Positions 970-40,656 are shown, numbered from the stretch's first letter. The stretch is DNA of 64,000 nt from an uncultured Alphaproteobacteria bacterium (GCA_902550225.1 CACCYL010000002.1:13539-77538); one strand, 5' to 3'. Program-made: numbers and translations. The notes: generated from the letters alone by a model not told the origin.

Positions 970-1043
970 TTTCTTAAAAACTTTTAAAAGATTTATATTT
1001 TATTTAGAGTAATTATGATATTATAATTTTTTTTATTATAACA

Positions 1044-1505
1044 ATGGCCGGATCAGTTAATAAAGTCATATTACTTGGAAGATTAGGTGGAGACCCAGAA
1101 ATAAGAGTTTCTCAAGAAGGAACAAAAATAGCTAGGTTCTCAGTTGCTACAAGCGAATCTTGGAAAGATAAGACAACAAACGAGAAAAAAGAAAAAACGG
1201 ATTGGCATAAGATTGTAATTTTTTCAGCTGGGCTAGCTGAAATAGTCGAGAAATTTCTTAAAAAAGGCTCTCTTGTTTATTTAGAAGGTCAAATTAGATC
1301 CAGAAAATTCAATGACCAAGCTGGCGTTGAGAAAACAACAACTGAAATAATACTTCAAGGATATAACTGTCAGTTGACAATGTTAGATAACAAATCGGAT
1401 GATTTTCAAAAATTGAATTCTCCTGACATTGAAAATTCTTCTGTTGAAAAAAAAATTGAAGAATCTGCGCAAGATTTTGATATAGAGGATGAAGTCCCTT
1501 TTTAA
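1044..1505 (+). CDS. ssb: Single-stranded DNA-binding protein
   Basis: SVNKVILLGRLG N-terminus, acidic DEVPF tail, divergent from uvrA. Confidence 0.98.
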   Translation: MAGSVNKVILLGRLGGDPEIRVSQEGTKIARFSVATSESWKDKTTNEKKEKTDWHKIVIFSAGLAEIVEKFLKKGSLVYLEGQIRSRKFNDQAGVEKTTTEIILQGYNCQLTMLDNKSDDFQKLNSPDIENSSVEKKIEESAQDFDIEDEVPF

Positions 1506-1517
1506 AACAAAAAATTT

Positions 1518-17961: not shown

Positions 17962-18006
17962 TAATAAACTATTATGAAACGTTGTCGTTAAAAGTTATTC
18001 ACAGTT

Positions 18007-19344: not shown

Positions 19345-19345
19345 A

Positions 19346-19375
19346 TTAGGTCTTTTTAACTTTTAAAACAGTGGT
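19346..19375 (+). promoter_or_regulatory. Bipartite motif TTAGGTC-N14-AACAGTGGT (copy 1)
   Basis: Same half-sites and spacing recur at 22925-22954, upstream of the paralogous gene. Confidence 0.5.
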
Positions 19376-19400
19376 ATTTCGCCTATAGTTAAAACTGGAT

Positions 19401-22400: not shown

Positions 22401-22883
22401 CAAGATACTTTTTATTTTGGTGATATGACTGAAGGAAATGATACAATAACGGATTTCACAGTTGGAGCTAGTGGTGATGTATTAAAGTTTAACACTGCGT
22501 TTCAAACAAGTTCATATACAAGAGATGCATCGGTTGTCAATATGGTACAGCTTCACGGTACATCTTATAATATGGGATCCAATTCAAATGTTCTTCCAAC
22601 AATTTTTAATTTTACATCACAATTTTCATCAGCAAATACAACAGCAGGCGTTACAAATCAGCTTACAAGTTTCAAAGTTACAACGGATGGTTCAACTCCA
22701 ATTTCAACTGCAACTGATTTTATTATTGTAACAGGAGATACAAGTACTAATGGTCATGTCTATGGATGGTCAGACAGTGGAAATGGTGTTATTGATAATG
22801 GAGAACTTTTTGGTTTAGCAACCTTAACTGGTGTTGACAATGATAACATTGGGGCAACAAATTTCACTTTTGGTCCAATATAA
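19401..22883 (+). CDS. Putative T1SS cargo: BapA-prefix-like + FecR-like domain + Gly/Pro repeat region + RTX C-terminus
   Basis: No Sec signal; GDPVFQGD...TPVATIGIRGT FecR-like core; long acidic G/P repeats; 4 GGxGxD-type nonamers; lies between tolC and ABC/hlyD. Confidence 0.85.
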   Translation: MKGNSQQINFNDSGFLTKIYAGSTIDIEGLPSWLPKANFSKTQTDLLITSPAGDEILLVDFFTNFELPSLKTENGLLLKGTLIDTLSGSFTPGQYAQANNANALSIGEVSSVTGEAKATRLDGSTVNLATGDPVFQGDTVETTGAGAIGLVFLDKTTLSLSEGGKMVLDELVYDPATGTGSMAVDMVEGAFSFVSGEIAKTGPDAMKVSTPVATIGIRGTTVAGKAAVEGNENSFTLLQDADGGVGQISVSNAGGTQVLAQVGATTSITSFTAPPPPPIILSAAQIQANYGTALNVLPPTPVVAPTPQPPPPPQEQQQEQVQEEESQEEEEAVEEEAVEEELQEEGEGPPEGEEGEGPPEGEEGEGPPEGEGPPEGEEGPPIGPDGEPLAEEGPPEGDGPPIGPDGEPLAEGEGGPPIGPDGEPLPPGEGGPPIGPDGEPLADGPPIGPDGEPLPPGDFGPGGPPIGPDGEPLADGPPIGPDGEPLPPGDFGPGGPTPEQDAAAREAFETALAAGLSPEEAMAEAAAAAGIPPPPGGFGGDPLSATVGGDEFAGGPLGPGGPGDFGPGGPGDFGPGGPGDFGPGGPGDFGPGGPGDFGPGGPGDFGPGDPDDFGFGGPGDFGPGGPGDFGPGGPGGFGDPLSFLGPAPDNAATFAPLGGPMDPNDPFAAFGGNAFGDSPIGLPGGPGGPGGPGDFGPGGPGGPGDFGPGGPGGPGDFGPGGGPGNFDSGSGGDQGSFGTFLPPGSFQPPGTVQQPGAYIPAQVGFAPIAPVTTAPVIGSGFSANDGGGFHGGPGGPAGFDPGGGPGDFGPGGPGGPGDFGPGGPGDFGPGGPGGFSPAGFGADGFGPGGFGPAGFGPAGFGPGGFGPGGFGPTGFGPGGFGPGGFGPAGFGPAGFGPAGFDPYGPDPSGGVPAGDFYYEDASMYENTGEAEGSESGSGSGGGSSGTTFIGSNNVDNVDKSAESVAWRFEGYSGADIFKGGSGDDIFWGAIDGDTLTGNAGQDTFYFGDMTEGNDTITDFTVGASGDVLKFNTAFQTSSYTRDASVVNMVQLHGTSYNMGSNSNVLPTIFNFTSQFSSANTTAGVTNQLTSFKVTTDGSTPISTATDFIIVTGDTSTNGHVYGWSDSGNGVIDNGELFGLATLTGVDNDNIGATNFTFGPI
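20535..22105 (+). repeat. Intragenic GC-rich tandem repeats (GPPIGPDGEPL x7; PGDFGPGG 24-bp units; GFGPx 15-bp units x~14)
   Basis: Directly visible in DNA and protein; third codon positions vary between units. Confidence 0.95.
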
Positions 22884-22906
22884 AGCTCCTAATAAATAGA
22901 GCTTTT
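22882..22906 (+). terminator. Weak hairpin after the first FecR/RTX gene
   Basis: AAAGCTC...GAGCTTT followed by a short T run. Confidence 0.35.
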
Positions 22907-22924
22907 AACTAAATAAATTTCCTT

Positions 22925-22954
22925 TTAGGTCGTAAATATAGCATTAACAGTGGT
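22925..22954 (+). promoter_or_regulatory. Bipartite motif TTAGGTC-N14-AACAGTGGT (copy 2)
   Basis: Matches 19346-19375 in both half-sites and in the 14-nt spacer length. Confidence 0.5.
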
Positions 22955-22963
22955 TCGTGGAAT

Positions 22964-25618: not shown

Positions 25619-25670
25619 GATGTTATATGTTTATTTTGAGGGTAAGAGAGTGATATTATAAAATAATATT

Positions 25671-27260
25671 ATGAAGTTTTGGTTTCACATATTAAAAGAA
25701 AGTAACTCTCTAAATACTATTCTTTTATTGACTTTTTTTATTACTATAATGGGTTTATTAAGCCCAATTTTTATTATTCACATTTTTAATAGATATATCG
25801 CATTTGGCCTTCAGGGTACTTTGTTTTTTTTATTATCAGGTGCTCTTTTAGTTGCAGTATTCGAGTATATATTTAGGAATATAAGGAGTAAAATTTTATG
25901 TGAAATTCTCATAAATCCAATAAAATTTTTTAAATTAGACCTAATCAAAACATTTTTTGAGAGAGAAAATAAAACATCAAAAAGAAATTTTGTTGAAATA
26001 ATTGATTTCAACAATAATTTTTTTCAATTCATATCACCTAAAGTTCAGTCAAATCTTCTCGACTCAATTTTTGCAATTTTAATTATTATTATTCTTTTTT
26101 TTCTAGACCTTTTATTAGCAACAATTTTTTTAATTCTTGTTATTATTTTCCTGTTATTGCAACAAAGATTAATAAAAAATAAAAATCTAAACTTGGAAAG
26201 ATTAAATTTATCTAAGAATGATAAATTAATAATTAAAGAGATTGGAACTAATCAAGAGCTTTTAAAATCTACTCTAGCATTTAAATATTCTGGATATTAT
26301 CTAGAAAATTACTTAAATAAAAAATTAAAAATCGACTCTTCAACTGCAAATTTTGATGCTCAACAAATTTCCACCACGAGTTTTTTTGTTTTGTTATCAT
26401 CAATCATTACTATTGGATTTGGGAGTATCTTTGTGGTGAATGGAAATCTCTCTATTGGTAGCCTGATAGGATTTAATATATTTGCTACTCGAGCGTTGGG
26501 TACAATTTCATCAGTTCAAAATTCATATTCCATTATTGAGAGAACAAATATGTATCTTAGTGATTGCCAAGATTTTTTTAAAAATTCTAAAAATCGAGTT
26601 GAGGGTATGCAACTTAGTAAAATTATTGGGAATTACAAACTTAAAAATGTAAACTATTCTTTTGATAATGATAATAAGTATATAATTAAAAATTTCTCTG
26701 CTAATTTTAATTCTTCAGAAATTTCAGTTATTAGCGGAGCGAATGGCTCCGGAAAGACCACAATTGCAAAATTGCTCATGGGACTAATTAATCCAGAATC
26801 TGGAGATATTTTATTAGATGAAACTAATTTGGAGAAACTATCATTGCAATGGTATAAGAATCAAGTAGCTTATATACCTGAAGATGTTGAAGTGTTAAAT
26901 TCATCAATTTTAAATAATATTTTAATATCCAACCCTGATCTGAATGAACAAGAGGTAAGTAGACTGCTTCAAAATGTTGGATTAGATAAAGAGTTAAAAA
27001 AATCAGATTTAACAATAACTGATTCTATAAATAAAAATTATTCAAAAGGGATTTTAAAAAAAATACATATTGCACGGTCGATTTCAAAAATCTATCAAAT
27101 TTATATTTTTGATGATCCGTTATTATATCTAGATAAATTAGGTAAAAATATGGTACTTAAATTGATAGCCTCATTAAAAAGAGCTGGAAAAACTGTAATT
27201 TGTTTTTCAGAAGATACTGAAATTATTAAATTAAGTGATAAACAAACTAATTTAGGGTGA
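25671..27260 (+). CDS. T1SS ABC transporter (TMD+NBD) with degenerate ATPase motifs
   Basis: Walker A GANGSGKT; signature YSKGI, Walker B IYIFDD, no switch His (CFSED). Confidence 0.85.
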   Translation: MKFWFHILKESNSLNTILLLTFFITIMGLLSPIFIIHIFNRYIAFGLQGTLFFLLSGALLVAVFEYIFRNIRSKILCEILINPIKFFKLDLIKTFFERENKTSKRNFVEIIDFNNNFFQFISPKVQSNLLDSIFAILIIIILFFLDLLLATIFLILVIIFLLLQQRLIKNKNLNLERLNLSKNDKLIIKEIGTNQELLKSTLAFKYSGYYLENYLNKKLKIDSSTANFDAQQISTTSFFVLLSSIITIGFGSIFVVNGNLSIGSLIGFNIFATRALGTISSVQNSYSIIERTNMYLSDCQDFFKNSKNRVEGMQLSKIIGNYKLKNVNYSFDNDNKYIIKNFSANFNSSEISVISGANGSGKTTIAKLLMGLINPESGDILLDETNLEKLSLQWYKNQVAYIPEDVEVLNSSILNNILISNPDLNEQEVSRLLQNVGLDKELKKSDLTITDSINKNYSKGILKKIHIARSISKIYQIYIFDDPLLYLDKLGKNMVLKLIASLKRAGKTVICFSEDTEIIKLSDKQTNLG

Positions 27261-27264
27261 AAAG

Positions 27265-28536
27265 ATGACAGAGAAATGGGTAAAATGGAATTTATTAAAA
27301 AACGATGAAAAACCAAAAAACGTTATTAGTAAAAGACTTAAAGTATCATTAATTCTTTTCTCACTTATTTTTTTGTTGCTAGTGAATTTAAAAATTATAG
27401 AGGTATTAAGCCTAGCTGACGGAAAAATAATTCCCCAAGGAAGAATAAAGTATGTGCAACATTTGGAGGGAGGAATAGTTGAAGAAATACTGATTAGTGA
27501 AGGTGAAAAAGTTGAAATAAATCAACCTTTAGTTGTTTTATCGAAAGAAAAAGCAAGCTCTGAATTTGAGGAGATTAACTCAAGACTTAAATCAATTGAT
27601 TTGTCGATACTAAGAGTTAATTCTGAAATAAATTCTAATAATTCAATAGAAATTCCTGAAAATAAAAATAATTTATTTGATGAGGAATTAGTAAAATCTG
27701 AAAATGAACTTTTTCAAAGTAGAAGAAAAGCAATCAATTCTGAAATAAAGTCTAAGAAAGCAAGTATTGATAAAGCTAACAAAAATCTCAAAAATTTAAA
27801 AAAAAGATTAAAAATCGTTAAAGAACAAGAAGATATTAGTCAAAAATTGTTAGAAGTTGAAGCAACAAATAGATTAAAGCATTTAGAAATTTTAAGAGAA
27901 AGGCAGGAGGTTGAAGGGAGTATCGACGAACAACAATCTATTATTGATTTGAGCAAGAATGACTTAGAAAAGGTGCAAAACAATTACATAGAAGATTTAA
28001 ATATCGAGTTGTCAAAGTACCGAAAAGAAAAAGAAGAACTTAATAAAAGAATTCAGAAATATTCAGATAACTTAAATAGAACTATTTTAAAAAGCCCTGT
28101 ATCTGGAACAGTAAAACTTGTATCGGTAAATTCTAAAGGTGCTATTGTTGCTCCTGGTGTGACTGTAGTTGAAATTGTACCTGAAAATGAAAAACTAATT
28201 ATTGAGGCAAAATTACCTTTATCAGAAATTGGCTATGTAAAAAAGAACCTTGAAGCAAAAATTAGATTAAATACACCTGAAGGCTCTAGGTTTAGATCAA
28301 TAAAAGGGAATGTTGTTTTTGTAGGGGCTGATAGAATTTCTAGTAAAGACGAAGAGGGTTTTTATTTAGTCAAGGTGGAAACCTCTGAAAACTCTTTTGC
28401 ACGAAAAAACGAGGAATATAAACTTTTGTCTGGTGTTCCAGTTATGGTTGGTATTATAACTGGTAAAAGAAGTTTTATGGATTATTTCTTAACGCCTTTT
28501 ATAACAGGTGCAAGCTTTGCATTATCTGAAAGGTAA
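27265..28536 (+). CDS. HlyD family T1SS membrane fusion protein
   Basis: VQHLEGGIV, coiled coil, KSPVSGTV, GKRSFMDYFLTP. Confidence 0.93.
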   Translation: MTEKWVKWNLLKNDEKPKNVISKRLKVSLILFSLIFLLLVNLKIIEVLSLADGKIIPQGRIKYVQHLEGGIVEEILISEGEKVEINQPLVVLSKEKASSEFEEINSRLKSIDLSILRVNSEINSNNSIEIPENKNNLFDEELVKSENELFQSRRKAINSEIKSKKASIDKANKNLKNLKKRLKIVKEQEDISQKLLEVEATNRLKHLEILRERQEVEGSIDEQQSIIDLSKNDLEKVQNNYIEDLNIELSKYRKEKEELNKRIQKYSDNLNRTILKSPVSGTVKLVSVNSKGAIVAPGVTVVEIVPENEKLIIEAKLPLSEIGYVKKNLEAKIRLNTPEGSRFRSIKGNVVFVGADRISSKDEEGFYLVKVETSENSFARKNEEYKLLSGVPVMVGIITGKRSFMDYFLTPFITGASFALSER

Positions 28537-28537
28537 A

Positions 28538-28837
28538 TTATTTTACAGATGATTTGGAAATTGTTTCAGATTTGAATATTACGCCGTTTTTTTGAGAATT
28601 GAGTTTTAAATGTTTGTAAAGCTCATCAAAAATAACATTTCCTTTTCTTTCTTTGACAATGAGAGTAAGAATATCTGCTTCACTAGCATCACCAAATTGC
28701 TGTATGTCAAAAATATCTGTGGCTCTACCATTAGCATAACCCACTGAAATAACGTCTGAATTTTCAGAAAACTTTTTAACAACTTTTTGTCCTAAACCTT
28801 TTTTTATTAAGCCACCAATTTCAATAAACTTTGACAT
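28538..28837 (-). CDS. Divergent PII-like protein
   Basis: Paralog-like to 28840 (YANGRAT vs YARGTG; KNGVIF vs GKGIM). Confidence 0.6.
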   Translation of the reverse strand: MSKFIEIGGLIKKGLGQKVVKKFSENSDVISVGYANGRATDIFDIQQFGDASEADILTLIVKERKGNVIFDELYKHLKLNSQKNGVIFKSETISKSSVK

Positions 28838-28839
28838 AT

Positions 28840-29196
28840 TTATCCTCCAGCTCGTTTGATGACATCTTTAGGTATATAAGTCGCAACTCTGTCAAGTTTA
28901 ACCATCCACATTATACCTTTTCCAGGTGTATCAAGATTTCCTGCTAAAAACATTGATTCAAAGACTCTGTTCGATTGTTCTTTAGAAACTATAATTCTTA
29001 TTATTTCTTTTTGTTCATCTATAGTTACTCCAAGAAGTCCCATTCTATCTCTAATGCCTGTACCCCTGGCATAATTAATTGTTGCACCTTGCGCTCCAAC
29101 ACTGGTGGCAGCATCTATGATTTTATCGGCTAGACCACTTTCAACAACACAAGTGATTAAAAAAACGTCTGTTAAATAAGTGATATCTCTGGCCAT
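28840..29196 (-). CDS. PII-family regulator
   Basis: GAQGATINYARGTG, KEIIRIIV, LDTPGKGI. Confidence 0.88.
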   Translation of the reverse strand: MARDITYLTDVFLITCVVESGLADKIIDAATSVGAQGATINYARGTGIRDRMGLLGVTIDEQKEIIRIIVSKEQSNRVFESMFLAGNLDTPGKGIMWMVKLDRVATYIPKDVIKRAGG

Positions 29197-29208
29197 AATT
29201 TTTTCCTT

Positions 29209-30909
29209 TTAGTTATTTTTTTGTTTAAATTGTATATATAGTCCCATTAGGAGTACAGCAAGAATTGGACAAATACTTGCCATAGATAGAATACCAAAAC
29301 CTTCAGTGGCGGATACAGCATTTCCTAGACCCAGACCCATAGCCAGAACAAGTGGTACTGTTACCGGGCCGGTTGTGACTCCAGCACTGTCCCAGGCGAC
29401 ATTAACAAATTCTTCAGTTGAAAAGTAAGTTAAAACAATTGCAAGAAGATAAAGTGGTATTAAAACGGTTGCTAAGTCAAAAGCAAATACAATTTTTCCA
29501 ACACCTAAGGCTATACCAAATGCAACACCCCCAGCAACACTATACATTAACATTGACTTTTTGAAAGCACCATTGGTAAGCTCTTGAACTGTCAAACCAA
29601 GGGCATTAAGTGCGGGCTCAGCAAGCGTTGCTCCAAATCCTAAGAGCCAAGCGAAAAGAATTACTATAGTTAAACCCAATAATTCGTTGTAAATTGGTGA
29701 TACTTCACTTATTGGGACTTCCATAAAGGCGGCAGGAAGATTGGTTCCAGCTTGTCCACCTATAGCTCCTAAACCATATGTGAGTCCTATATTGAAGACA
29801 CACATCCCAACAATGGACAAAGTTAACCCATAAGTTGTTATCATATTATTAGGAAGTTTAGATCTAAGGATTACAAAAAGCACAATCATTAAAAATATCA
29901 CAAGTGGGAGTATTGCACGAACTCCTCCAATAATTTCAACATACGGGGTTTGTGACCACTTAGAAACCTCTCCTATGGTCATATCTGAAGCCATACTAGT
30001 CGAAGCAATTATTTCCTCAACTGAGATTGTCTGAGAAACATGTATAGCAAGAATCAGAACAGCGATAATTGGAAATAATGAAGCCATTGTAACGACGCCG
30101 AAACCAGAAAGAGATGAATCTCCTTTACCAGCTGATGCTGCAATTCCAATACCTAGTGATAGCACAAGAGGTACAGTAACTGGTCCAGTTGTAACAGCAC
30201 CACAATCCCAAGCTAATCCGAGAATAGTTCTTAAATCAGGATTACTCCATACATATGCAGTAAGAATTATTGTTGGTGCAAGAGCTGCATAAATCATAGG
30301 TTTTAGAGACCAACCTTTGACAAACCTTATTGTTCCAATGATGGCTGCTAATCCAACACCAGCACCGACCATTACAACTAAGGTTTCACTTCTATTGTTT
30401 AGTATCTCATACAGATACGGTGCGTCCTGAGGATTTATTGACGAACCAAATGCTTTGAGTGCTCCAATAGCTGGTTCCGCATAAGTTACTCCCACCCCAA
30501 GTATTCCAATAATAATTAAAACAAGAACCATTGGTGCTTTTTTTGGTAATGTGTCACCAATTACATTGCCAAATGGCATTAAACCGGTTTTAAGACCTTC
30601 CATAAAAATTGCTAGGCCTATTATTACTGCAATTAATCCTAGACAAATTGTTGTCGCTGAAGAGATCGGTTGTCTTAAAATTAAAAGCTGAAACAGAAAT
30701 AAATATGCTGCAAGTGGAACAACAGCTTTAATTTGTTCCATAACTCTAGAAATCGTGTAAGGTGCTAACAGAGTAAGTGCCTTGGCAGGAGATACTTTAA
30801 TTTTCTGAGGCTTTAGTGATTTTCCTTTAGCTGCCTTCGGCGTAAGAAGATTATAACTTAAAGATTTATGATTTATCTCTGATTCGTGAATGTAATCGGA
30901 ATATTTCAT
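29209..30909 (-). CDS. DUF1538 family membrane protein (two fused domains)
   Basis: AEPA and AWD(C/S)xxVTTGPVTVP and GFG motifs each occur twice; adjacent to PII-like genes. Confidence 0.9.
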   Translation of the reverse strand: MKYSDYIHESEINHKSLSYNLLTPKAAKGKSLKPQKIKVSPAKALTLLAPYTISRVMEQIKAVVPLAAYLFLFQLLILRQPISSATTICLGLIAVIIGLAIFMEGLKTGLMPFGNVIGDTLPKKAPMVLVLIIIGILGVGVTYAEPAIGALKAFGSSINPQDAPYLYEILNNRSETLVVMVGAGVGLAAIIGTIRFVKGWSLKPMIYAALAPTIILTAYVWSNPDLRTILGLAWDCGAVTTGPVTVPLVLSLGIGIAASAGKGDSSLSGFGVVTMASLFPIIAVLILAIHVSQTISVEEIIASTSMASDMTIGEVSKWSQTPYVEIIGGVRAILPLVIFLMIVLFVILRSKLPNNMITTYGLTLSIVGMCVFNIGLTYGLGAIGGQAGTNLPAAFMEVPISEVSPIYNELLGLTIVILFAWLLGFGATLAEPALNALGLTVQELTNGAFKKSMLMYSVAGGVAFGIALGVGKIVFAFDLATVLIPLYLLAIVLTYFSTEEFVNVAWDSAGVTTGPVTVPLVLAMGLGLGNAVSATEGFGILSMASICPILAVLLMGLYIQFKQKNN

Positions 30910-30946
30910 AATCTATCATAACATATTGTAGAAATTAATAAAATCT

Positions 30947-31414
30947 TTATTCAACATGACTTGTTGACTTCTCTAATCTGTAAAGAATTTGCTTTGTTAT
31001 TTTTTTAATTATTTGATTCTCAGACTCTATAATCTCATCTATTTCATCATGAGAATAATGTACATTTTGATACTCATTTCTTTTAGCAAGTTCTTTACAT
31101 AAATTTAAAATTACTTTTTGTGCGGCCTTTGATCCAGAATTAATTAGTTCATCAAGATTTTCTTTACTTATAGATATCAACTCTGTGGATTGACTTGAGG
31201 TAATGGTTGCGCTTCTGTTTTGTTGTAAAATTAAAGCCATTTCACCAAAAACCTCTCCATCTCTCATAGACCCAACTTTTTTTCCATCAACTAATACGTC
31301 CAGCGATCCAGAAACTATCATGTAAGCTTTATCGCCTTTGTCGCCTTGATTAAAGAGCGTCTCGCCCTCTAACATCAAAACTTTTGTTGTTTTTCCGTGA
31401 CTTATCTCTTTCAA
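30947..31414 (-). CDS. Stand-alone cyclic-nucleotide-binding protein
   Basis: LFNQGDKG, FGEMALILQQNRSAT phosphate-binding cassette; no HTH evident. Confidence 0.9.
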   Translation of the reverse strand: MKEISHGKTTKVLMLEGETLFNQGDKGDKAYMIVSGSLDVLVDGKKVGSMRDGEVFGEMALILQQNRSATITSSQSTELISISKENLDELINSGSKAAQKVILNLCKELAKRNEYQNVHYSHDEIDEIIESENQIIKKITKQILYRLEKSTSHVE

Positions 31415-31851
31415 GAAAATATCCTTTGAGATAATCTATAGTGAATCTGAAGCGCTAAAGCTCTTATTACGTTGGGAGAGTCCTTAGTTAGTTTTACAAG
31501 ATCAGCTTTGGTAATTGGAAGTTTTTGGTTATCTGATTTTCCTAATTCCTTAGACATTTCATTAATTACTTTATGAAGATCAATGTTAGAGGATAATAAA
31601 ATAGCTTCCAACGCCTTTCTTTTTATTTCAACAATTTCACTTGGTACAATTGCTTTTATGCTCGCAGTTCTGTTTTCATTTAGAATTAAAGACAATTCTC
31701 CAAAGATTTCACCTGTTTCAATTTTTCCTATCTTTTTTCCTTCAATTTCTGCAACTAGTCCACCTGAAATAACTAGAAAAGCTGTTTCTCCTTTTTCGCC
31801 CTCTCGAACAATATATTGATCTGGAAGAACTCTTATTTTTTTTAAACCCAT
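31411..31851 (-). CDS. Stand-alone cyclic-nucleotide-binding protein
   Basis: IVREGEKG, FGELSLILNENRTAS; paralog of 30947. Confidence 0.9.
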   Translation of the reverse strand: MGLKKIRVLPDQYIVREGEKGETAFLVISGGLVAEIEGKKIGKIETGEIFGELSLILNENRTASIKAIVPSEIVEIKRKALEAILLSSNIDLHKVINEMSKELGKSDNQKLPITKADLVKLTKDSPNVIRALALQIHYRLSQRIFS

Positions 31852-31866
31852 TTAAACCTAATTTTT

Positions 31867-34242
31867 TTATTTAGAGGTTGCGACAAAAACACCATCCCAA
31901 TCTTTTGGGGGAGGATACTTTTTAAATTCATTAATTCTTTCTGTCATCATTTCATAGTAATCTTTCATTAAATTTTTACAAAGTGTTTTTGCCTGAGTCA
32001 TTTCCTCGACAGCATCTTTCCAATTTTGATTAAAATAATGATTTAATACATTTTTATGCTTTTTTTCAAGATTTTTGAAATCAACACTATTTTTAAAACT
32101 TGGATCACCAAGTAAACAAAAAATTGATACAGCTTCTTTTTTTCCTTTTACTGCTAGCATATCAAGTTGGAGTGTAGCAAAAGTATCTTTAACAGCATCG
32201 TTTGTTTCTTGCCCAATAACTGTTTTAACTCCATAACCTTTTGATTGACCTTCAAGACGTGATGCTAGATTTACTGCGTCTCCCAGTACTGAATAGTCAA
32301 ACCTTTGATCCGATCCCATATTTCCAACAACACAACCTCCGGTATTTAGTCCAATTCCAATTTTTAATTCCAAAAAATCTTTATTTTCTGACTTCGCTTC
32401 TTGCTCTCTGATATCGTTAAGTTCTTTTAGTGCTTTATGCATACTTAATGCTGCTTCACAAGAAACTTGCTCATGTTTATCAACATCTATAGGTGCATTC
32501 CAAAAAGCCATAATACAATCTCCCATATATTTATCGATTGTTCCGTTTTTATTTATGATTTCATTAGTAAGAGGTGTTAAAAATCTATTTATAAGTTTTG
32601 TTAGGCCTTGAGGATCTGATTTAAAAGCTTCTGAAATTGTTGTAAATCCTCTTACATCACAAAAAAGAAATGTCATTTTTTTTGTTTCTCCACCCAAAAC
32701 TAATTTATCAGGATCTTCAGCTAATTGTTCCACTAAAGCGGGAGATAGATATTGAGAAAATGCACCCCTTATTTGTTTTTTCTCATTGGCATCACGTAAA
32801 TAGTTTGCAAAGGTGTTACTAAAATAAATTACAAAAGTTGTTACACCTGCAAAGGTTGGATCAAATAAAGTTTTATGTTCAGTAAATAATCTTACACTAA
32901 TATAAAATGCTGAACTTATTATGGTTACAAGTGATGAAATATTTACAATTGGACCAAACTTTAATGCAGATACTGTGATAAATAATGCAAGCAAAATTGT
33001 AAAGAGTGCTTCATAAAATTTCATATTTGCACCAGATTTCAAAAAAGGTGATCCTGAAATTTTAACTTTGTTTTTTTCAATTATTGCTTCTTCTTCACTT
33101 AAACCTTTTTTTAATGCATCTTTATAAACTTTTTCAGAATTTTTTGTGGAAGTATAATAAAGAATTGCTGAAATGACTGTATCAATGAGATTTGCATGAA
33201 TTTCGACACCTGGCATTCTTTCATCGACTGGAGTGGGTCTAATATCCTTTAACCCAGTGGCCGATGTGCCTAATATACCAAGTTTTCCTTGTAATCTATC
33301 TTTGCCGACCCTTCCTTTAATTATATCCACTGCACTTACATAATACCTTGATTTGCCTTCTTTAACTTTTCCAGCATCTGAATCACCATAATAAATCCAC
33401 ACTCTACCATTCTCATCAGTCGGAATAGCAGCATTACCAATAGCTTTAGTTTGAATTATTATTTCTTTAATTCCCGTCAAACCTGTCCTAGTGGCAATAC
33501 TATTTCCTTGAAACGCAACCCTTATCATATCAAGCCCAAGAGTTGGTCTGATTTCACCTGCAACATTTGATATTAAAGGTACTCTTCTAATAATACCATC
33601 TGGTTCTTGTGCAACTGAAACTGTACCAGACCCAGAAGCAGCTTTTTCAAACTCTGTCACATTAGCAAGCAATCCAGGATAAGATATCAACCATTCCTTT
33701 GGATTTTTACCTTTGCCAATAAAAACTTTTACAGATGAATCGTTTATATCATTTCTGTTTGCATCACCTTCAATATCTAATCCCGAGTGACCAATTATTA
33801 CAGGGAACTCATTCATAGCTTCCATTGCTAAAAACTCATTAGAGGGAAGTTCACTTAGTAGTTTGGCAATATTTGGGTTTCGTTTTTCTAAATCTTGAGA
33901 AATCAAATCGGGTGAAGTCCTGTCTTTTTCTGCAAATAGAACATCTAGGCCTAAAACGAGCATGCCCGATTCTTTAGATTTTTTAAAAAGATCAGCAAGT
34001 ACAGTTCTTGGCCACGGCCATTGACCAATTTCTCTAAGAGATTTTTCATCAATATCTACTATTACGGAATAAGTTTGACCATCCGTAGACCTTGGGAATT
34101 TTTTTTGAAGAACATCAAAATACTTTAGTCTAAGAACTTCTACTACTTCAGGATCAGCTATACGAACCAAACCAAAAAGAATAGCCATTAATACAGAAGC
34201 AATAGTAACAATTAGTCTAAAACTTAGCTTAAATTTGATCAT
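31867..34242 (-). CDS. CHASE2-domain adenylate cyclase
   Basis: IVDIDEKSL..GQWPWPR, DGIIRRVPL, GVEIHAN, 3 TM segments, FCDVRGFT, DKYMGDC, YSVLGDAVNLASRLE. Confidence 0.95.
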   Translation of the reverse strand: MIKFKLSFRLIVTIASVLMAILFGLVRIADPEVVEVLRLKYFDVLQKKFPRSTDGQTYSVIVDIDEKSLREIGQWPWPRTVLADLFKKSKESGMLVLGLDVLFAEKDRTSPDLISQDLEKRNPNIAKLLSELPSNEFLAMEAMNEFPVIIGHSGLDIEGDANRNDINDSSVKVFIGKGKNPKEWLISYPGLLANVTEFEKAASGSGTVSVAQEPDGIIRRVPLISNVAGEIRPTLGLDMIRVAFQGNSIATRTGLTGIKEIIIQTKAIGNAAIPTDENGRVWIYYGDSDAGKVKEGKSRYYVSAVDIIKGRVGKDRLQGKLGILGTSATGLKDIRPTPVDERMPGVEIHANLIDTVISAILYYTSTKNSEKVYKDALKKGLSEEEAIIEKNKVKISGSPFLKSGANMKFYEALFTILLALFITVSALKFGPIVNISSLVTIISSAFYISVRLFTEHKTLFDPTFAGVTTFVIYFSNTFANYLRDANEKKQIRGAFSQYLSPALVEQLAEDPDKLVLGGETKKMTFLFCDVRGFTTISEAFKSDPQGLTKLINRFLTPLTNEIINKNGTIDKYMGDCIMAFWNAPIDVDKHEQVSCEAALSMHKALKELNDIREQEAKSENKDFLELKIGIGLNTGGCVVGNMGSDQRFDYSVLGDAVNLASRLEGQSKGYGVKTVIGQETNDAVKDTFATLQLDMLAVKGKKEAVSIFCLLGDPSFKNSVDFKNLEKKHKNVLNHYFNQNWKDAVEEMTQAKTLCKNLMKDYYEMMTERINEFKKYPPPKDWDGVFVATSK

Positions 34243-35963
34243 GGTTCTGCAAAACTATTACCGAGGGTTCTTATAAGTGGATAAATAAAATACGTAATTA
34301 ATCTTCTTTGCCCAACTCTAAATTTTCCTGAGACTTTCATTCCTGGCATTAAATTAAATCCTGGAGGAATATCTTTTAACTCATTTTCTGTTATTTGAGC
34401 TCTAGCCCTATAAAAATTTCCAGGTTTTCCATCGACGTCTTTATCAATTGTGTCAGCAGAAACATAAATGAGCTTTCCTTTTAACTCACCGTGTTTTTGT
34501 GCTGGAAGGGCATTGAGTTGAATTTTAACAGATGTATCCGGAATCAGTTTACTAATATCAGAAGGATCAACATCAAAAACAGTTAATAACTCCACACCTG
34601 TTGGTACCAATGTAACAACACTTTTACCTTGTGTTATTACTGCTCCAGGATATAGAGAATGAAGGTCTAGAATCATACCGTCAGAGGGCGCTCTTACTAC
34701 AACATCAGTTTGTTGTCTTTCAAGTTTTTTTACATCTTCTTGTAGCGACATTCTTTGATCCTCTAATCCAACAAGCTCATCGTTTATTCCTCCAAAAAAT
34801 TGACTGTTATATTCTTTTCTATTAGATTTTAATTCGCTTAGTTTATTGCTTGTTTTTGTGAATTCTTTTTCTAAAGATAGTCTTTTGTTTTTCTCAGCTA
34901 AAACTTGTGATTCTGCTACTAGATCAAGTTCAAATAACTCCAACTTTGAATCTTCTAGCTGCTTTTGTATATCAAGTTGTTCCTTTATAAACTTCAAATC
35001 GTCTTCTGTGGAACCTATTTGTTGATCTAAGGAAGCAATCTTTGCTAAATATTGGTCTTTTTTATCTTTGAAGATTCTGCTTTGTCTTTCGTCATTTGGA
35101 TTTGCAACCGAAACATTATTCCTCAACAATGACTGCTTTTTTAGTCTATCAATTTTTGAATTAACAACTGAAAGCTGATAATCAAGTTTCATTTTATCGG
35201 CTCTTTGAAGTGTAGCATCGAATGTTACGAGTGGATCTCCTTGATTGACACTTTCACCTTTTTTAACAAGTATTTCTTTAACAACAGAATTATAGTTTGA
35301 TTGAACCTCTACATTTGGAACAACGGTAGTTATTTTTCCAGAAGCAGAAATTGTAGTATCAATTTCAGAAATAGTGCCCCAACTAATTAAAAATAAAACT
35401 AGGAAACCAAATGAATAAACTGACATTTTAACAGAACGAGGTACCTGTTTTGTTTTAATTCTATCAATGTCGTCATCAAATTCATCTAATAATTCACTCA
35501 TCATTTTTTTCTTTGATCTATTTTCTTTTTCTTCCTCAGTTAAAACCTCTTCTTGATCTTTGTTATTTTCATTTTCATTGCCAGATTCGAAAGCATCTAC
35601 AGATAATTTTTCGTTTGCATTTCTGGCGTAGCTTGCAAGCTGCTGCATCATATTAAAAGCGGTTTGTGGAGAGTTTTTGAGATAGCCTAGTAAAGCATTT
35701 TGATCAATTTCTTTTACCGTTGTCTCAACTGTCGCTCTTGCCATCGCACTTCTTGGTTGTTTGTCAATTAATGCCATTTCTCCAAACAATGCACCTTTTT
35801 CAAGTATTGATAAAGTGACGTATTCGTCACCGTTGAATTTGCATACCTCTATTTTTCCTTTTACTATTTGATAGGCATAGTCTCCAACTTCACCTTCTCT
35901 AAAAAGTACATCACCTGCAGCTAAATTTCTAACAGCCGGTTGTATATTTTTTTTATCAGCCAT
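34239..35963 (-). CDS. HlyD family membrane fusion protein with N-terminal cNMP-binding domain
   Basis: LFREGEVGD...FGEMALIDKQPRSA, then TM, coiled coil, RAPSDG, LMPGM. Confidence 0.92.
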   Translation of the reverse strand: MADKKNIQPAVRNLAAGDVLFREGEVGDYAYQIVKGKIEVCKFNGDEYVTLSILEKGALFGEMALIDKQPRSAMARATVETTVKEIDQNALLGYLKNSPQTAFNMMQQLASYARNANEKLSVDAFESGNENENNKDQEEVLTEEEKENRSKKKMMSELLDEFDDDIDRIKTKQVPRSVKMSVYSFGFLVLFLISWGTISEIDTTISASGKITTVVPNVEVQSNYNSVVKEILVKKGESVNQGDPLVTFDATLQRADKMKLDYQLSVVNSKIDRLKKQSLLRNNVSVANPNDERQSRIFKDKKDQYLAKIASLDQQIGSTEDDLKFIKEQLDIQKQLEDSKLELFELDLVAESQVLAEKNKRLSLEKEFTKTSNKLSELKSNRKEYNSQFFGGINDELVGLEDQRMSLQEDVKKLERQQTDVVVRAPSDGMILDLHSLYPGAVITQGKSVVTLVPTGVELLTVFDVDPSDISKLIPDTSVKIQLNALPAQKHGELKGKLIYVSADTIDKDVDGKPGNFYRARAQITENELKDIPPGFNLMPGMKVSGKFRVGQRRLITYFIYPLIRTLGNSFAEP

Positions 35964-35969: not shown

Positions 35970-38141
35970 TTATCCGGCCTTTTTTAAAGATTTAATTTTG
36001 TTCTCTACGCCTAAAATAGACATTTGCTTATTATACGTTTGACCAAAATAACCTGAAATTTGTCTTAATTCTTCAAAAGAACCCTGTTGAGATATTTTCC
36101 CCTTTTCAAGCACAAAGATTTTGTTACAAAGTCGAAGATGCCAAACCCTGTTTGATACGATAATTATCGTTCTACCAAGTGCAATATCTGATAGTGCATC
36201 GTATAATTTTATTTCACTGTCAACATCAAAACCTGTGAAAGCATCATCAAGTATCATGATACGAGGGTTTCTAATAAGTGCTCTGGCAATTGCTAGTTTT
36301 TGTCTTAAGCCAGTTGCAAGATTTGTGGCATTTTCCTCTAAGAATGTTTCATATCCATCAGGATAAGACTCAATTTCTTCATGTGCGAAAACTTTTTTCG
36401 CAGCCCAAGTTATCCTGTCCATGGAGGAATTTGGCATTGCACTCGCTATTGTTTCTCTTATTGTTCCTGGAAAAAAATAACTATCTGTTCCAACCAATGA
36501 AACCTGTGATCTTACATGACTAAGATCCAGTAAACGTAGATCTATATTATCCAGAGCCACGATACCAGCCTGGGGTCTATATAGACCCTGAATTAGTTTT
36601 GCGATAGTACTTTTTCCACATCCACTTTTACCTGTAATACCAATTATCTGTCTTGGATTAATTTCAATATCAATATCATTTAATACTTTTGTATTATCAT
36701 CGTATCCAAACTCAACATTTTTAAAACTAACTTGTCCCATAAGTTGAGGTTTTTGGCCTCTGACAGTTGTTTCGGAGTTTGCATCCACTATTCCTGATAT
36801 AATCTGAAGAGATTGAACTAATTTTGTTATTTCTGTTTTAAGTGTAACTAGATCAATTATTGGCTTTGATACTCTGCCGGCAAGCATATTAAAACCTACT
36901 AAAATCCCAGCTGAAAGAGATCCAGAAAATACAAGATGCACCCCTACAAAAATAACCATTGCAGTCATAAGTTGATTTATGGTTGATGAAATATTGTTTA
37001 AAACTGCTGACTTTTTTTGCATTTCTTCATTTGCAATAATATAATTTGCTTCCAAATCTCTCCACTGATCTTTCAAATTAGGTTCAAGAGCAAGTCCCTT
37101 AACATTCTCAATTCCGTTAACAGCAACAGAAATAAATTCTTGTCTTTTTGATTCAGCCTTACTTAAACCAGCGAGCGAATCTCTTTGTTTTTTTGAGTAA
37201 AACATTGATGCTAAAGCTCCTAATATACTAAAAGAAAACACAACAATAAATAGTAATGGGCTATAAAAAAATAGAATGGGAACAAAAACAAGTAAACTAA
37301 TTGAGTCCAGTGCTGTTGAGAAAACTTTTTGCGTCAGAAGGCTTTTGATCTGCGATATTTGGCCTGTGAATCTCAAAAAAGTAGCTGATTCTTTATGAAA
37401 CCTTTGCATTGGTAAAGCAATTAATTTTTCAAAAACTTTAACTGAAAGTTTCGCCTCAACCTTTTGTGAGAAAAAATCAAGAAGATATGACTTTAAATAC
37501 CCGAGTATTCCGTTAAATACATAAGCAACAACTACACCTGAAGTTATAACATATAAAGTTGAATAAGCTTCATAGTTTACAACCTTATCCAAAACCAACA
37601 TCATGAAAACAGCTGGTATAACTGCGAAAATGTTTAAAATCAAAGCTACAATTACAACTTGAAACATAACAGACTTGTTTCTAAAGGATTCACCTATTAG
37701 CCATCCAATTTTTAATTCACTGTCTTCTTCAAATTTTTTAAGTTTGGCTTTAAGAAGTATTACTTCTCCGTTCCAGCCTTTTTTTAATTCTTTTAAATTA
37801 ATTTGTTGAGGTTTCGGACTGGTAACACCAGTATCAAGACATAAAATTGACTTATCATCATCTTTTTCACCCTGAATAACTCTTAAAGCTATTATGTATC
37901 TTCCATTTTTAAGTCTTAAGATCTGTTGTTTTTTAGACAAGAGCTTTACTAGTTCCTTCTCGCTAATTTTGGTTGCTTTTGCTTTTAAATCAAAGGATTG
38001 AGCTAAGTCACACATTTCAGAGGTTCTAAGTTCTCTATCCTCAATTTGAAATCTTTCTGGAATATCATTTGGACCAATATGAACACCTAATTGTCTTGCA
38101 ACTAGAATAATTGATTTTTGAGAACCTCGCATCGCTTCCAT
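35970..38141 (-). CDS. T1SS ABC transporter with C39-like domain and degenerate ATPase motifs
   Basis: N-terminal C39-like region ending WNGEVIL with no evident catalytic Cys; Walker A GKSGCGKS; LATGL signature; Walker B IMILDD; IVSNR switch. Confidence 0.9.
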   Translation of the reverse strand: MEAMRGSQKSIILVARQLGVHIGPNDIPERFQIEDRELRTSEMCDLAQSFDLKAKATKISEKELVKLLSKKQQILRLKNGRYIIALRVIQGEKDDDKSILCLDTGVTSPKPQQINLKELKKGWNGEVILLKAKLKKFEEDSELKIGWLIGESFRNKSVMFQVVIVALILNIFAVIPAVFMMLVLDKVVNYEAYSTLYVITSGVVVAYVFNGILGYLKSYLLDFFSQKVEAKLSVKVFEKLIALPMQRFHKESATFLRFTGQISQIKSLLTQKVFSTALDSISLLVFVPILFFYSPLLFIVVFSFSILGALASMFYSKKQRDSLAGLSKAESKRQEFISVAVNGIENVKGLALEPNLKDQWRDLEANYIIANEEMQKKSAVLNNISSTINQLMTAMVIFVGVHLVFSGSLSAGILVGFNMLAGRVSKPIIDLVTLKTEITKLVQSLQIISGIVDANSETTVRGQKPQLMGQVSFKNVEFGYDDNTKVLNDIDIEINPRQIIGITGKSGCGKSTIAKLIQGLYRPQAGIVALDNIDLRLLDLSHVRSQVSLVGTDSYFFPGTIRETIASAMPNSSMDRITWAAKKVFAHEEIESYPDGYETFLEENATNLATGLRQKLAIARALIRNPRIMILDDAFTGFDVDSEIKLYDALSDIALGRTIIIVSNRVWHLRLCNKIFVLEKGKISQQGSFEELRQISGYFGQTYNKQMSILGVENKIKSLKKAG

Positions 38142-38231: not shown

Positions 38232-39218
38232 TTAGACTACCTCACCACCATCATTTGGATCGTCAGGAGGTGGAGGCATATCTGCGGGCATATCACCTGG
38301 CATTGGCCCTGGATCTCCCGGAGGAGGTCCTTCTGGACCTTGATGTGCTCCCGCATCGTCCATGTGTGTATGCATGTCACCCATTCCATCCGGAGGAGGT
38401 GGAGGCATTCCATCGCCGTCCATGTCCATGCCTGGAGGAGGTCCCATTGGATCACCCGGAGGAGGTCCGCCTGGTTCTCCTGGAGGAGGTCCACCAGCTG
38501 GTCCACCTTCACCAAATAATGGATCTGGTCCTTCACCACCTGGAGGTGGTGGAGGCATTCCATCTCCATCCATATCCATGCCTGGAGGAGGTCCATCTGG
38601 TCCCATTCCGCCTGGACCCATATCACCTGGAGGAGGTCCGTCTGGTCCGCCGGCCATATCACCTGGAGGAGGTCCGTCTGGTCCCATTCCGCCTGGACTC
38701 ATATCACCTGGAGGAGGTCCATCTGGTCCCATTCCGCCTGGACCCATATCACCTGGAGGTGGTCCGTCTGGTCCGCCGGCCATATCACCTGGAGGAGGTC
38801 CACCTTCACCTGGAGGAGGTCCATCAGGAGCTCCTGGTAAATCACCAGGAGGCGGAGGTGGAGGAGCATCAGCACCTGGTCCCATGTCAGGAACAGGAGG
38901 CATATCAGGACCAAAATCCGAACATGGTCCGTCAGGACAACCATCTAAATGGGTGTCCATAACATCAGAGACAGCGTCAAAAGCCTCTTCTGCACTTGCA
39001 CCAGGGTTTTCAGCCATAAAATCGTTGTATGCACCTTGAGCTGTGTCAGCCATATTCATCATAACTTCGGGGGGCATACCTCCATCAGTCATAACGTCCA
39101 TTGCTGCAGTCATACATTCGTCAAAACTACCTCCACCTTGCATTACGTCAAACGCAGCAGAGCCTGCAGCGTCGCCGAGATCCATAAGTTCAGGAGGCAG
39201 TGTAGTAAAATCTGCCAT
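38232..39218 (-). CDS. Very acidic Pro/Gly/Asp/Met-rich repeat protein, candidate T1SS cargo
   Basis: AAGGAA RBS at 39225-39230, own terminator, located between tolC and ABC; GPDGPPPGDM repeats. Confidence 0.8.
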   Translation of the reverse strand: MADFTTLPPELMDLGDAAGSAAFDVMQGGGSFDECMTAAMDVMTDGGMPPEVMMNMADTAQGAYNDFMAENPGASAEEAFDAVSDVMDTHLDGCPDGPCSDFGPDMPPVPDMGPGADAPPPPPPGDLPGAPDGPPPGEGGPPPGDMAGGPDGPPPGDMGPGGMGPDGPPPGDMSPGGMGPDGPPPGDMAGGPDGPPPGDMGPGGMGPDGPPPGMDMDGDGMPPPPPGGEGPDPLFGEGGPAGGPPPGEPGGPPPGDPMGPPPGMDMDGDGMPPPPPDGMGDMHTHMDDAGAHQGPEGPPPGDPGPMPGDMPADMPPPPDDPNDGGEVV

Positions 39219-39330: not shown

Positions 39331-40656
39331 TTATTTTTCAATTGTTTCAAAGTTTAAAATTCCGCATAATTTTAATAATTCAAAGGATGAAATAATAAGT
39401 TGATATTGTGCGTTTACTAAATTTGATTCAGAATCTGTTAATTCTTTTTGTGCATCTAGAATTTCCAATGTTGTTCTGGTACCAACACTAGCTTCTTTAG
39501 TTACTCCCTCAACTGCCATTAAATTTGACTCAACTGAAACCTCAAGGGAATCTATACTTGATTTGGAACTTTGTATTTTCTTCCATGCCGAATTAATTTG
39601 AAATTGTAAGTCAAGTTTTTTTGTCTCGATGGATTTAATAACTGAAAGTGCAGAATCTTTTGATTTTTCTAAATTTAACAAATTATGTCCTTTGTTAAAC
39701 AATGGAACCGTAACATTGGCAGTTACTGAGTATGAATCTGTTCTTTCAACTGTCCTTGATGGATCAAGTGATTTTCCTACTGAACCAGACAAAGAAAATT
39801 CTGGTGCAAAATTTAAATTATTTTTTCTTACATCCAATTTTGAGTTTATAAGTTGTAATTTTAATTTTCTATAATCTGGGTTCTTTTCCAAACCTGTTTG
39901 TATTGAATCTTCCAAAGATTTTGGAAGTTTTGGTATTTGCCCAAATTTTAACCAATCTTTTGGATTGGCGTCGACAATTTGGGCATTATTGGAATCAAAC
40001 CATTTGATATCTGGAGCTCTACCGACAATAGTTTTAAAATCAGAAATTGAAATTTCTAAGTTATTTTCAGCTTCTATTCTCTTTGAAGTAGCACCTGCTA
40101 ATCTTGCTTTAGCTTGAAAAACGTCAGTTTTAGTAACGTCTTTAAATTCGAATCGCTTTTCAGCAGCATTTAGTTTTTTTTCAAGAGTTTCTTCGTTCCT
40201 TTTTGAAACATCTAAAAGAAAATAATCCTTTAAGACAGTATAATAAGCTCTACTAGCTTTAAACAAAACATCTTGGACTGTGGCATAAAAGGTTAACTTT
40301 GCGATGTTCAAGTTATTTTTAGCTTGCTTGAAATTTATAGCTTTTGTGTAACCTAGAGGTTGAGATAAATCTACGTCGAACGTAGTTGGGTTGAAAGCGC
40401 TATCATTAATTCTAGATGTATCGGGATTACTTTTTGTAATTTTCCTTCCTTGTGAAGCTGAAAAATCAAGGGATGGAAGAAAATCTGTTTTTGAAATTTT
40501 TAAATCTTTTTCTGAAATTTTTAGTTCAGTTTTACTTTTTTCAATGTCTGGATAAAACTTATATGCATCTTTCAAAACATTGGAGAGTTCTTCAGAAATT
40601 GAAATAACGGGAAAAAATATCAATGCTAAGATAACCAGATTTAATTTGGATTTCAC
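39331..40656 (-). CDS. TolC family outer-membrane channel
   Basis: Signal peptide, FLPSLD, GTRTTLEILDAQ. Confidence 0.92.
   Translation of the reverse strand: MKSKLNLVILALIFFPVISISEELSNVLKDAYKFYPDIEKSKTELKISEKDLKISKTDFLPSLDFSASQGRKITKSNPDTSRINDSAFNPTTFDVDLSQPLGYTKAINFKQAKNNLNIAKLTFYATVQDVLFKASRAYYTVLKDYFLLDVSKRNEETLEKKLNAAEKRFEFKDVTKTDVFQAKARLAGATSKRIEAENNLEISISDFKTIVGRAPDIKWFDSNNAQIVDANPKDWLKFGQIPKLPKSLEDSIQTGLEKNPDYRKLKLQLINSKLDVRKNNLNFAPEFSLSGSVGKSLDPSRTVERTDSYSVTANVTVPLFNKGHNLLNLEKSKDSALSVIKSIETKKLDLQFQINSAWKKIQSSKSSIDSLEVSVESNLMAVEGVTKEASVGTRTTLEILDAQKELTDSESNLVNAQYQLIISSFELLKLCGILNFETIEK

Follow-up and report, generated by a model that had tools for sequence, protein, structure and literature searches.

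Can the adaptor of a type I secretion system (T1SS) carry its own receptor for a second messenger, and would such a receptor act on secretion? The question was raised by a 64,000-nt stretch of DNA from an uncultured Alphaproteobacteria bacterium (GCA_902550225.1 CACCYL010000002.1:13539-77538), referred to here as the window and used for all coordinates. In it, a complete cyclic nucleoside monophosphate (cNMP)-binding domain was found joined to the cytoplasmic end of a HlyD-type adaptor. This cNMP-HlyD gene is a genuine, vertically conserved gene for a HlyD-family type I secretion adaptor with an N-terminal cytoplasmic cyclic nucleotide-binding (CNB) extension. Full-text searches of the literature found no description of a cNMP-HlyD fusion, and database sources name its relatives merely 'HlyD family secretion protein'. 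The fusion gene and its parts are listed below.

34239..35963, minus strand: cNMP-binding::HlyD fusion gene (P0001), single open frame with ATG start, 574 aa
35586..35930, minus strand: CNB domain, residues 12-126, beta-barrel plus B/C helices, cytoplasmic (PF00027; AlphaFold2)
35733..35789, minus strand: phosphate-binding cassette, residues 59-77, LFGEMALIDKQPRSAMARA (42-member alignment)
35439..35585, minus strand: acidic disordered linker and juxtamembrane helices, residues 127-175 (AlphaFold2; family alignment)
35370..35438, minus strand: single transmembrane (TM) helix, residues 176-198 (AlphaFold2 helix; hydrophobic run in the translation)
34242..35369, minus strand: periplasmic HlyD part with lipoyl domain, long alpha-hairpin and beta-barrel (Pfam HlyD_3, HlyD_D23, Biotin_lipoyl; Foldseek)

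In the translated product, cNMP_binding (PF00027) was matched at residues 12-97 (E 1.3e-19; 70.4 bits versus a cut-off of 27.5) and HlyD_3 at residues 422-535 (E 4.3e-15); HlyD_3 and HlyD_D23 together covered residues 409-535, and Biotin_lipoyl was also matched (Pfam). The curated NCBIfam cut-off for TIGR01843 type_I_hlyD was passed with 219.7 versus 208.65 bits. The AlphaFold2 prediction, which drew on 42 family members (mean predicted local distance difference test score, pLDDT, of 86), placed, in order, a CNB beta-barrel at residues 11-86, helices at 88-126, a disordered segment, the TM helix at 176-198 and the adaptor domains, namely, a lipoyl domain, a long alpha-hairpin and a beta-barrel. 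Foldseek paired the adaptor domains with EmrA, MacA and E. coli HlyD (5C21/5C22). The TIGR01843 score, the domain layout and the neighboring ATP-binding cassette (ABC) and TolC genes assign the protein to the HlyD family, and the PF00027 score, the modeled barrel-plus-helices fold and the canonical cassette assign its N-terminus to the CNB domains. The gene starts 6 bases after the stop of the upstream ABC gene, and its TGA shares 4 bp (ccATGAtc) with the ATG of a CHASE2 cyclase gene at 31867..34242. An original prediction made from this DNA had described a complete cNMP domain and an acidic linker ahead of the HlyD TM helix, which Pfam, NCBIfam and AlphaFold2 confirmed, and a 4-bp overlap with the cyclase start, which proved to be ATGA; everything that it had read from the sequence was correct, the minus strand having gone unmentioned.

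The same prediction named misassembly as one outcome that would overturn it. An artefact of assembly or gene calling is, with near certainty, not the explanation, and both chance and misassembly are excluded by the recurrence of the fusion in databases and genomes. The best 120 of 668 database matches were all 572-623 aa long, all carried PF00027 together with HlyD-type Pfam domains, and stemmed from many independent contigs, some of ~1.49 Mb. In a sample of the bacterium's order (42 species genomes of one family and 14 genera, 0.8-2.0 Mb), the fusion was found in 33/42 genomes, including 9/9 of those at least 90% complete; the domain junction was spanned by one uninterrupted frame in 31 of the 33, and the two others were cut by contig ends. 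A HMMER scan of 1.84 billion cluster representatives yielded ~35 full-length matches with 23-39% identity among the best 150, and both domains were present in 41/45 long matches chosen and scanned. These intact frames in 31 assemblies, in 120/120 listed matches and in 41/45 distant representatives refute an artefact, as do the fusions in SAR116, Magnetococcales and Rhodospirillaceae loci.

Clustering at 50% identity gave at least 41 protein clusters with the fusion, mostly from marine Alphaproteobacteria. The named relatives are marine; those at 73-75% identity came from a 'Rickettsiales bacterium' and uncultured alphaproteobacterial genomes, and the others comprised SAR116, Magnetococcales, Rhodospirillaceae, Magnetovibrio, Nisaea, UBA4588 and a partial Scalindua contig. 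Marine metagenome runs from at least 10 studies hold the stretch in part (0.29-0.47 of the sampled words). An unrooted tree of the HlyD part was calculated from 42 fusions, 52 plain HlyDs among the best 150 matches and the plain HlyD of a second T1SS in the window. One split with a support of 0.994 set the 42 fusions and 6 plain HlyDs opposite 47 plain ones, which is consistent with a single origin of the fusion, the plain rows being the similar ones among the matches listed. When the tree was rooted on the second HlyD of the window, the fusions fell into 13 separate groups; this rooting was rejected, leaving the unrooted split as the informative result.

The phosphate-binding cassette of the fusion reads FGEMALIDKQPRSAMARA. 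Its G61 was invariant in the 42 aligned family members, and E62, R71 and A73 were each kept in at least 90% of them; the G-E...R pattern (GE...RSA type) was found in 40/42 members, at identities of 23-83%. In true cNMP binders, the Gly-Glu and Arg-Ser/Thr-Ala of the cassette touch the ribose and the cyclic phosphate. The nearest solved CNB domains by sequence were those of PKG, PKA-R, CRP-family proteins, Bd1971, SthK and MloK1, all of them true cyclic-nucleotide binders, with Bd1971 being a cyclic AMP (cAMP)-binding EAL protein. Cassette conservation and these relatives argue for a working cNMP pocket under selection. The sequence evidence on the CNB domain does not separate cAMP from cyclic GMP (cGMP), and the residues of the neighboring cyclase point to cAMP.

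The cyclase and the other neighbors belong to a string of genes with one orientation and gaps of -4 to 112 bp, in the order TolC, candidate cargo, HlyB-like ABC, cNMP-HlyD, CHASE2 cyclase and two small CNB proteins, closed by a DUF1538 protein, a P-II-like protein and a 99-aa open reading frame (ORF).

39331..40656, minus strand: TolC-family outer-membrane channel, first operon gene (Pfam OEP, E 2.8e-56)
38232..39218, minus strand: candidate cargo, 328 aa, rich in Pro, Gly, Asp and Met, no Lys, no Arg, net charge -60
35970..38141, minus strand: HlyB-like ABC exporter, 723 aa, N-terminal C39-like domain (Pfam ABC_membrane, ABC_tran, weak Peptidase_C39)
31867..34242, minus strand: CHASE2 sensor with class III (IIIb-type) adenylate cyclase, 791 aa (Pfam)
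31411..31851, minus strand: small stand-alone cNMP-binding protein, 146 aa (PF00027, E 5.3e-15; cassette FGELSLILNENRTAS)
30947..31414, minus strand: second small stand-alone cNMP-binding protein, 155 aa (PF00027, E 4e-18; cassette FGEMALILQQNRSAT)
28538..30909, minus strand: DUF1538 membrane protein (like fused UmpA/UmpB), P-II-like protein and 99-aa ORF (Pfam, NCBIfam)

The TolC-family channel falls slightly short of TIGR01844 (213 bits versus a cut-off of 225). Among related loci gathered with a 12-row alignment of the family, an ABC gene lay directly upstream of the fusion in 17/17 of those that include upstream sequence.

In the cyclase protein, CHASE2 was matched at residues 24-360 (E 2.5e-46) and Guanylate_cyc at residues 520-705 (E 1.2e-19; Pfam). 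Its best solved relative was P. aeruginosa CyaB (3R5G, E 9.6e-33), to which the catalytic domain aligned with all catalytic positions present, i.e., the two metal Asp, the Lys/Thr pair, Asn and Arg. In class IIIb cyclases, the two Asp bind metal, Lys and Thr specify ATP, and Asn and Arg form the transition-state site. The sensor of CyaB is MASE2, whereas the sensor here is CHASE2. From these residues and domains, we read the protein as an adenylate cyclase whose sensor is extracytoplasmic.

The cAMP-related inventory of the window's genome (63% complete) is small. Five cNMP domains were found, three of them within this operon and the remaining two in open frames of just 86 and 134 aa. Both of its cyclases lie inside the window, each adjoining a T1SS; the same two cyclases are typical across the order, and class III cyclases were present in 36/42 genomes. 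The regulator domain HTH_Crp_2 (PF13545) was above cut-off in 1/42 genomes, and Crp (PF00325) was matched in that same genome on a small contig (G003:C95), with positive controls for the HTH_Crp_2 and Crp searches matching 14/14 and 9/14 control genomes, respectively. Since CRP-type regulators are nearly absent, the cAMP receptors of the order appear to be non-transcriptional, i.e., CNB proteins that do not bind DNA, and the secretion adaptor appears to be the most conserved of them.

How the receptor might act is suggested by the place to which it is attached. Cytoplasmic regions of HlyD are described in a review as essential for substrate recognition and assembly and as structurally little known (PMC8277102), and a charged motif in the cytoplasmic tail is reported to contact HlyB and to be essential for TolC recruitment (bioRxiv 10.1101/2025.05.27.656419), which bears out the role in substrate engagement and TolC recruitment that the original prediction had ascribed to the HlyD N-terminus. 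We infer cAMP binding and secretion gating from the observed architecture, conservation, synteny and residue patterns; which ligand acts, in which direction it switches secretion, which surface the domain contacts and what the cargo is are likewise matters of proposal. The CHASE2 domain would sense an extracytoplasmic cue and the cyclase would make cAMP, which would bind the CNB domains hanging beneath the machine, six per machine if the stoichiometry of E. coli HlyB/HlyD holds. A movement of the B/C helices could then shift the contacts of the tethered domain with the C39-like domain or the nucleotide-binding domain of the ABC protein, with the juxtamembrane HlyD segment or with the cargo. 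The change in contacts would permit or block cargo engagement and TolC recruitment, a post-translational control. Direct gating of secretion by locally produced cAMP through the adaptor's CNB domain, as originally proposed, is given a probability of roughly 0.55. It fits the canonical cassette of 40/42 members, the adenylate-type residues of the cyclase and the constant presence of that cyclase beside the fusion in the order. A tethered module is favored because the CNB domain is appended, via a disordered linker, to the HlyD region tied to TolC recruitment and substrate recognition, and a post-translational switch fits a lineage almost without CRP-type transcription factors.

Several points weigh against gating by local cAMP. 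The cassette is lost in 2/42 family members. The linker is disordered in the model (pLDDT <50 over residues 125-165) and variable in length (24-80 residues, median 48), which makes a rigid allosteric or mechanical coupling to the TM helix unlikely and favors a tethered regulatory module. The linker has a net charge of -8 over residues 125-176 and is net negative in 35/42 members; the juxtamembrane consensus F..D...I.....P is kept across the 42 members. In favor of such gating, a cyclase in a ~795-aa frame was located ~2 kb downstream of the fusion, on the same contig and strand, in 33/33 fusion-bearing genomes of the order; as these genomes are related to one another, the count reflects conserved synteny and not 33 independent observations. 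Against it, a CHASE2 cyclase was directly downstream in only 1/14 full-length loci outside the order, the SAR116 locus L017, an independent recurrence in which a 796-aa cNMP-HlyD is directly followed by it. A different class III cyclase lay within 10 kb in two more loci (L005 and L015). In the other 11/14, none was found with the window cyclase as query and with flanks down to 2.4 kb in two of them. Since most loci outside the order are without an adjacent cyclase, the family as a whole is not dependent on a local one. On the favorable side, RNA-library contigs covered the fusion gene in 4/4 metatranscriptome runs from four studies, one contig spanning the ABC/HlyD junction, and such contigs may include DNA carry-over. 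A further point against cAMP comes from HetC of Nostoc PCC 7120, an ABC exporter that contains a peptidase and carries at its N-terminus a cNMP domain required for function; this domain, the only one on such an exporter known to have been studied, was not stabilized by cAMP and bound ppGpp (Kd 59 uM) and GTP (PMC10986499). A complex prediction of the ABC protein with CNB residues 1-128 scored 0.00 versus a mark of 0.32 and has no bearing either way.

HetC and the loci without a cyclase also favor a different reading, in which the CNB domain is a real sensor for a ligand other than cAMP (cGMP, a ppGpp-like molecule or another) and the cyclase serves mainly the small CNB proteins; the cGMP-dependent kinases among the best solved sequence relatives are in line with it. 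This appears unlikely, given that the Gly-Glu and Arg-Ser/Thr-Ala residues of the cassette are kept in nearly all members and that the adjoining cyclase, invariably present beside the fusion in the order, has the adenylate-type Lys/Thr pair. Alternatively, the domain could bind cAMP without gating anything, either as an assembly or oligomerization module dimerizing like CRP through its long C-helix, or as a membrane-tethered cAMP buffer shaping a local signal for the small CNB proteins, the DUF1538/P-II proteins or both. A 28-residue helix at residues 99-126 of the AlphaFold2 model does resemble the CRP C-helix, the flexible tether offers no obvious route for force transmission, and the gene string encodes two more CNB proteins and a P-II-like protein as part of a recurring gene set. 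We nevertheless consider it improbable, as the domain is placed exactly on the HlyD segment linked to substrate recognition and TolC recruitment, and lineages at 23-39% identity have retained the fusion, in most cases with neither small CNB genes nor the DUF1538 set close by.

The neighborhood of the cyclase and of the small CNB genes showed further features. Locus L021 is another independent recurrence, in which a CHASE2 cyclase and small CNB ORFs come after a HlyD gene whose N-terminus is lost at the contig end. In locus L005, the class III cyclase domain, at 10927-12306 (-), is located between 2Fe-2S ferredoxin and Rieske domains, 4 kb from the SAR116 cNMP-HlyD gene. The two small cNMP-protein genes of the window share 4 bp and both products terminate in a '...QI.YRL...' motif; the closest related loci, L001-L003, carry just one such gene. 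The DUF1538, P-II and ~99-aa ORF trio was seen near cNMP-HlyD genes in L001-L003, L009 (3870-6310) and L015 (1895-4301), thus recurring in three lineages, the window's order, a Magnetovibrio metagenome-assembled genome (MAG) and a UBA4588 MAG. A joint decay of fusion and cyclase in one genome (G038) was considered and rejected because frame changes break all genes of the locus; TolC, ABC, fusion, cyclase, CNB, DUF1538 and P-II genes are all frame-split there (L081; G038:C3:12000-31000), a pattern that resembles a noisy assembly or a locus decaying as a whole and not a specific co-loss. The lack of RNA cover in some bins of the window, e.g., 30942-31755 in three runs, does not show that they are silent.

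The cNMP-HlyD fusion travels with two more peculiarities newly noted here, a degenerate-motif ABC partner and an acidic candidate cargo without Lys and Arg. The best solved relative of the ABC protein was E. coli HlyB (7SGR/8DCK; E 1.6e-99, query residues 13-693). Compared with HlyB, the Q-loop Gln is replaced by Thr, LSGGQ by LATGL, the Walker B Asp-Glu by Asp-Asp and the H-loop His by Asn, so that the canonical ATPase motifs are absent at these four sites; Walker A is intact. The HlyB-type family TIGR01846 scored best and stayed under its cut-off (487.9 versus 725.55 bits), so the protein is not a member. The weak Peptidase_C39 match covers residues 13-132 (E 1.5e-05), the HlyB alignment begins at residue 13 with the catalytic column unaligned, and the first 40 residues contain no Cys. 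In a comparison of 15 cNMP-HlyD-linked ABC proteins, the window's and those of 14 related loci, the Q-loop Gln and an intact signature were missing in 15/15, the catalytic Glu was lost in 6/15 and the H-loop His in 9/15; the ABC protein of L017 is without even Walker A.

The candidate cargo matched no Pfam or NCBIfam family, including RTX repeats (HemolysinCabind), and when its first 110 residues were used as query in a word-index search, none of the 35 candidates reached E <= 0.001. The GC content of its ORF is 52%, compared with ~31% in the surroundings. Among 13 related loci from different lineages, 11 had a Lys- and Arg-free acidic ORF directly upstream of the ABC gene in the same orientation; L007 was without one and L004 was ambiguous from masked bases. 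In the ORFs of this type, Lys was absent in 13/13 and Arg in 12/13, the net charge was -19 to -96 and the Met content 4-23%, and 'MPP[DE]AM'-type repeats were shared, as were the ends, with PPE[IL]MD...EAFDA at the N-terminus and ...DDGGEV[VI] or ...DPxAGMG at the C-terminus. Those with coordinates, ~300-570 aa long, are listed below.

L003, 6732-7742: cargo-type ORF
L005, 1757-2845: cargo-type ORF
L009, 6664-7668: cargo-type ORF
L010, 4891-6615: cargo-type ORF
L013, 6116-7060: cargo-type ORF
L015, 5470-6729 and 6987-7553: two cargo-type ORFs
L017, 1-1275: cargo-type ORF

Within the order, the ORF is kept in place in 24/42 genomes and diverges much faster than the adaptor. In the four runs, the RNA contigs over the cargo gene summed to a depth of 316-3040 and those over the genes for ABC, adaptor and cyclase to 0-15; contig depth is a poor measure that cannot rank genes, and repeats and relatives inflate it. 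Repeat-number variants of cargo-type ORFs appear as many 'joints' in the RNA contigs. A 114-aa ORF outside the window (G000:C9:17813-18001) resembles cargo residues 30-92 with 35% identity (E 1.3e-6) and recurs in several genomes of the genus.

From its composition and position, the ORF without Lys and Arg is the probable cargo of the exporter. Were it instead non-coding or an unrelated stretch of low complexity, the pump would move something else, and the system would not be a protein exporter for it. The lack of a family match and of a word-index homologue would agree with this, as would several overlapping ORFs on both strands of the GC-rich repeat, but the same odd composition with shared end motifs upstream of the ABC gene in separate lineages, the conservation in place within the order and the RNA contigs in 4/4 runs make it very unlikely. 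As pure conjecture, the richness in Met and Asp might mean metal binding.

The two peculiarities together allow for a conduit gated by cAMP in place of an ATP-driven pump, in which the membrane potential would drive a polyanionic, disordered protein free of Lys and Arg outward by electrophoresis. The ABC protein would then bind ATP without hydrolyzing it and serve as a gate or scaffold, and on/off control would come from the tethered CNB domains. The idea, which follows from the degenerate ABC motifs and a cargo without opposing positive charge, is quite doubtful. The second T1SS of the window repeats both oddities; its ABC is non-consensus at the same four motifs with Walker A intact, and its cargoes have 1.8-4.5% Lys plus Arg. 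This locus converges on the first.

14936-28536, plus strand: second type I locus
14936-17242, plus strand: GAF-GAF-PAS class III cyclase heading the locus
18007-19344, plus strand: OEP channel
25671-27260, plus strand: PrtD-like ABC
27265-28536, plus strand: plain HlyD

It also encodes a 250-aa ORF, a 1160-aa FecR-domain protein (1.8% Lys plus Arg) and an 884-aa protein with FecR and RTX.

In comparison to the E. coli HlyB-HlyD-TolC system, the locus of the fusion shares the three components, the C39-like N-terminus on the ABC protein and the topology and domains of the adaptor. It differs in a cytoplasmic adaptor N-terminus of 175 residues containing a whole CNB domain, in an ABC protein without Q-loop Gln, LSGGQ, catalytic Glu and H-loop His, in a candidate cargo without RTX repeats, Lys or Arg and in a cyclase within the operon.

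Three other forms of a link between cNMP domains and exporters are known, with the domain placed on the ABC protein, in a separate two-domain protein or in a separate small protein beside HlyD. HetC represents the first and agrees with the original statement that known cNMP fusions in T1SS are on the ABC subunit (PMC10986499). Like the adaptor described here, it has a cNMP-type domain on the cytoplasmic side of a T1SS/PCAT-type machine; the HetC domain, however, is part of the ABC protein, lies in a locus with no adaptor gene in the vicinity and had ppGpp/GTP, not cAMP, as the ligand found (PMC10986499), whereas in the present system the adaptor bears the CNB domain, the cassette is canonical and the ABC protein had no PF00027 match. 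The second form is TIGR03896 cyc_nuc_ocin, a stand-alone soluble two-domain protein associated with bacteriocin-type transport, which is likewise linked in genomes to peptide or protein ABC export; here the sensor is part of the adaptor. The small CNB proteins of the window matched the first and the second domain of TIGR03896, respectively, and the HlyD-fused domain the second, with scores of 27-35 bits that are far under the cut-off of 161, so none is a member. The two small proteins resemble a split TIGR03896. In the third form, a HlyD gene is followed by a separate small cNMP protein gene, a split pairing seen in L019, L020, L022 and L023 (Methylocystaceae and Rhodospirillales MAGs). The HlyD-family adaptor of L019 scored 403.7 bits on TIGR01843. 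In contrast to the ABC partners of the fusion, the two LssB-like ABC genes in L019, L020 and L023 keep Q-loop Gln, catalytic Glu and H-loop His.

In the usual description, type I secretion is under the control of transcription and of substrate arrival. The T1SS with a putative second-messenger receptor built into its adaptor is real and conserved, and the proposed gating of secretion by cAMP, judged from sequence and models, is well motivated. If direct gating by cAMP is true, the receptor would switch the secretion machine itself, directly and post-translationally, and a ligand-controlled HlyD segment, in a region whose role is known genetically and is structurally poorly understood, would offer a handle for studying the step of substrate recognition and TolC recruitment. 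A polyanionic cargo without Lys and Arg, together with degenerate ATPase motifs, raises a testable question of how the exporter is energized. Among marine Alphaproteobacteria, the lineage is abundant and genome-streamlined; with two cyclases, each beside a T1SS, and hardly any CRP-type regulator, its cAMP signaling may mainly control secretion.

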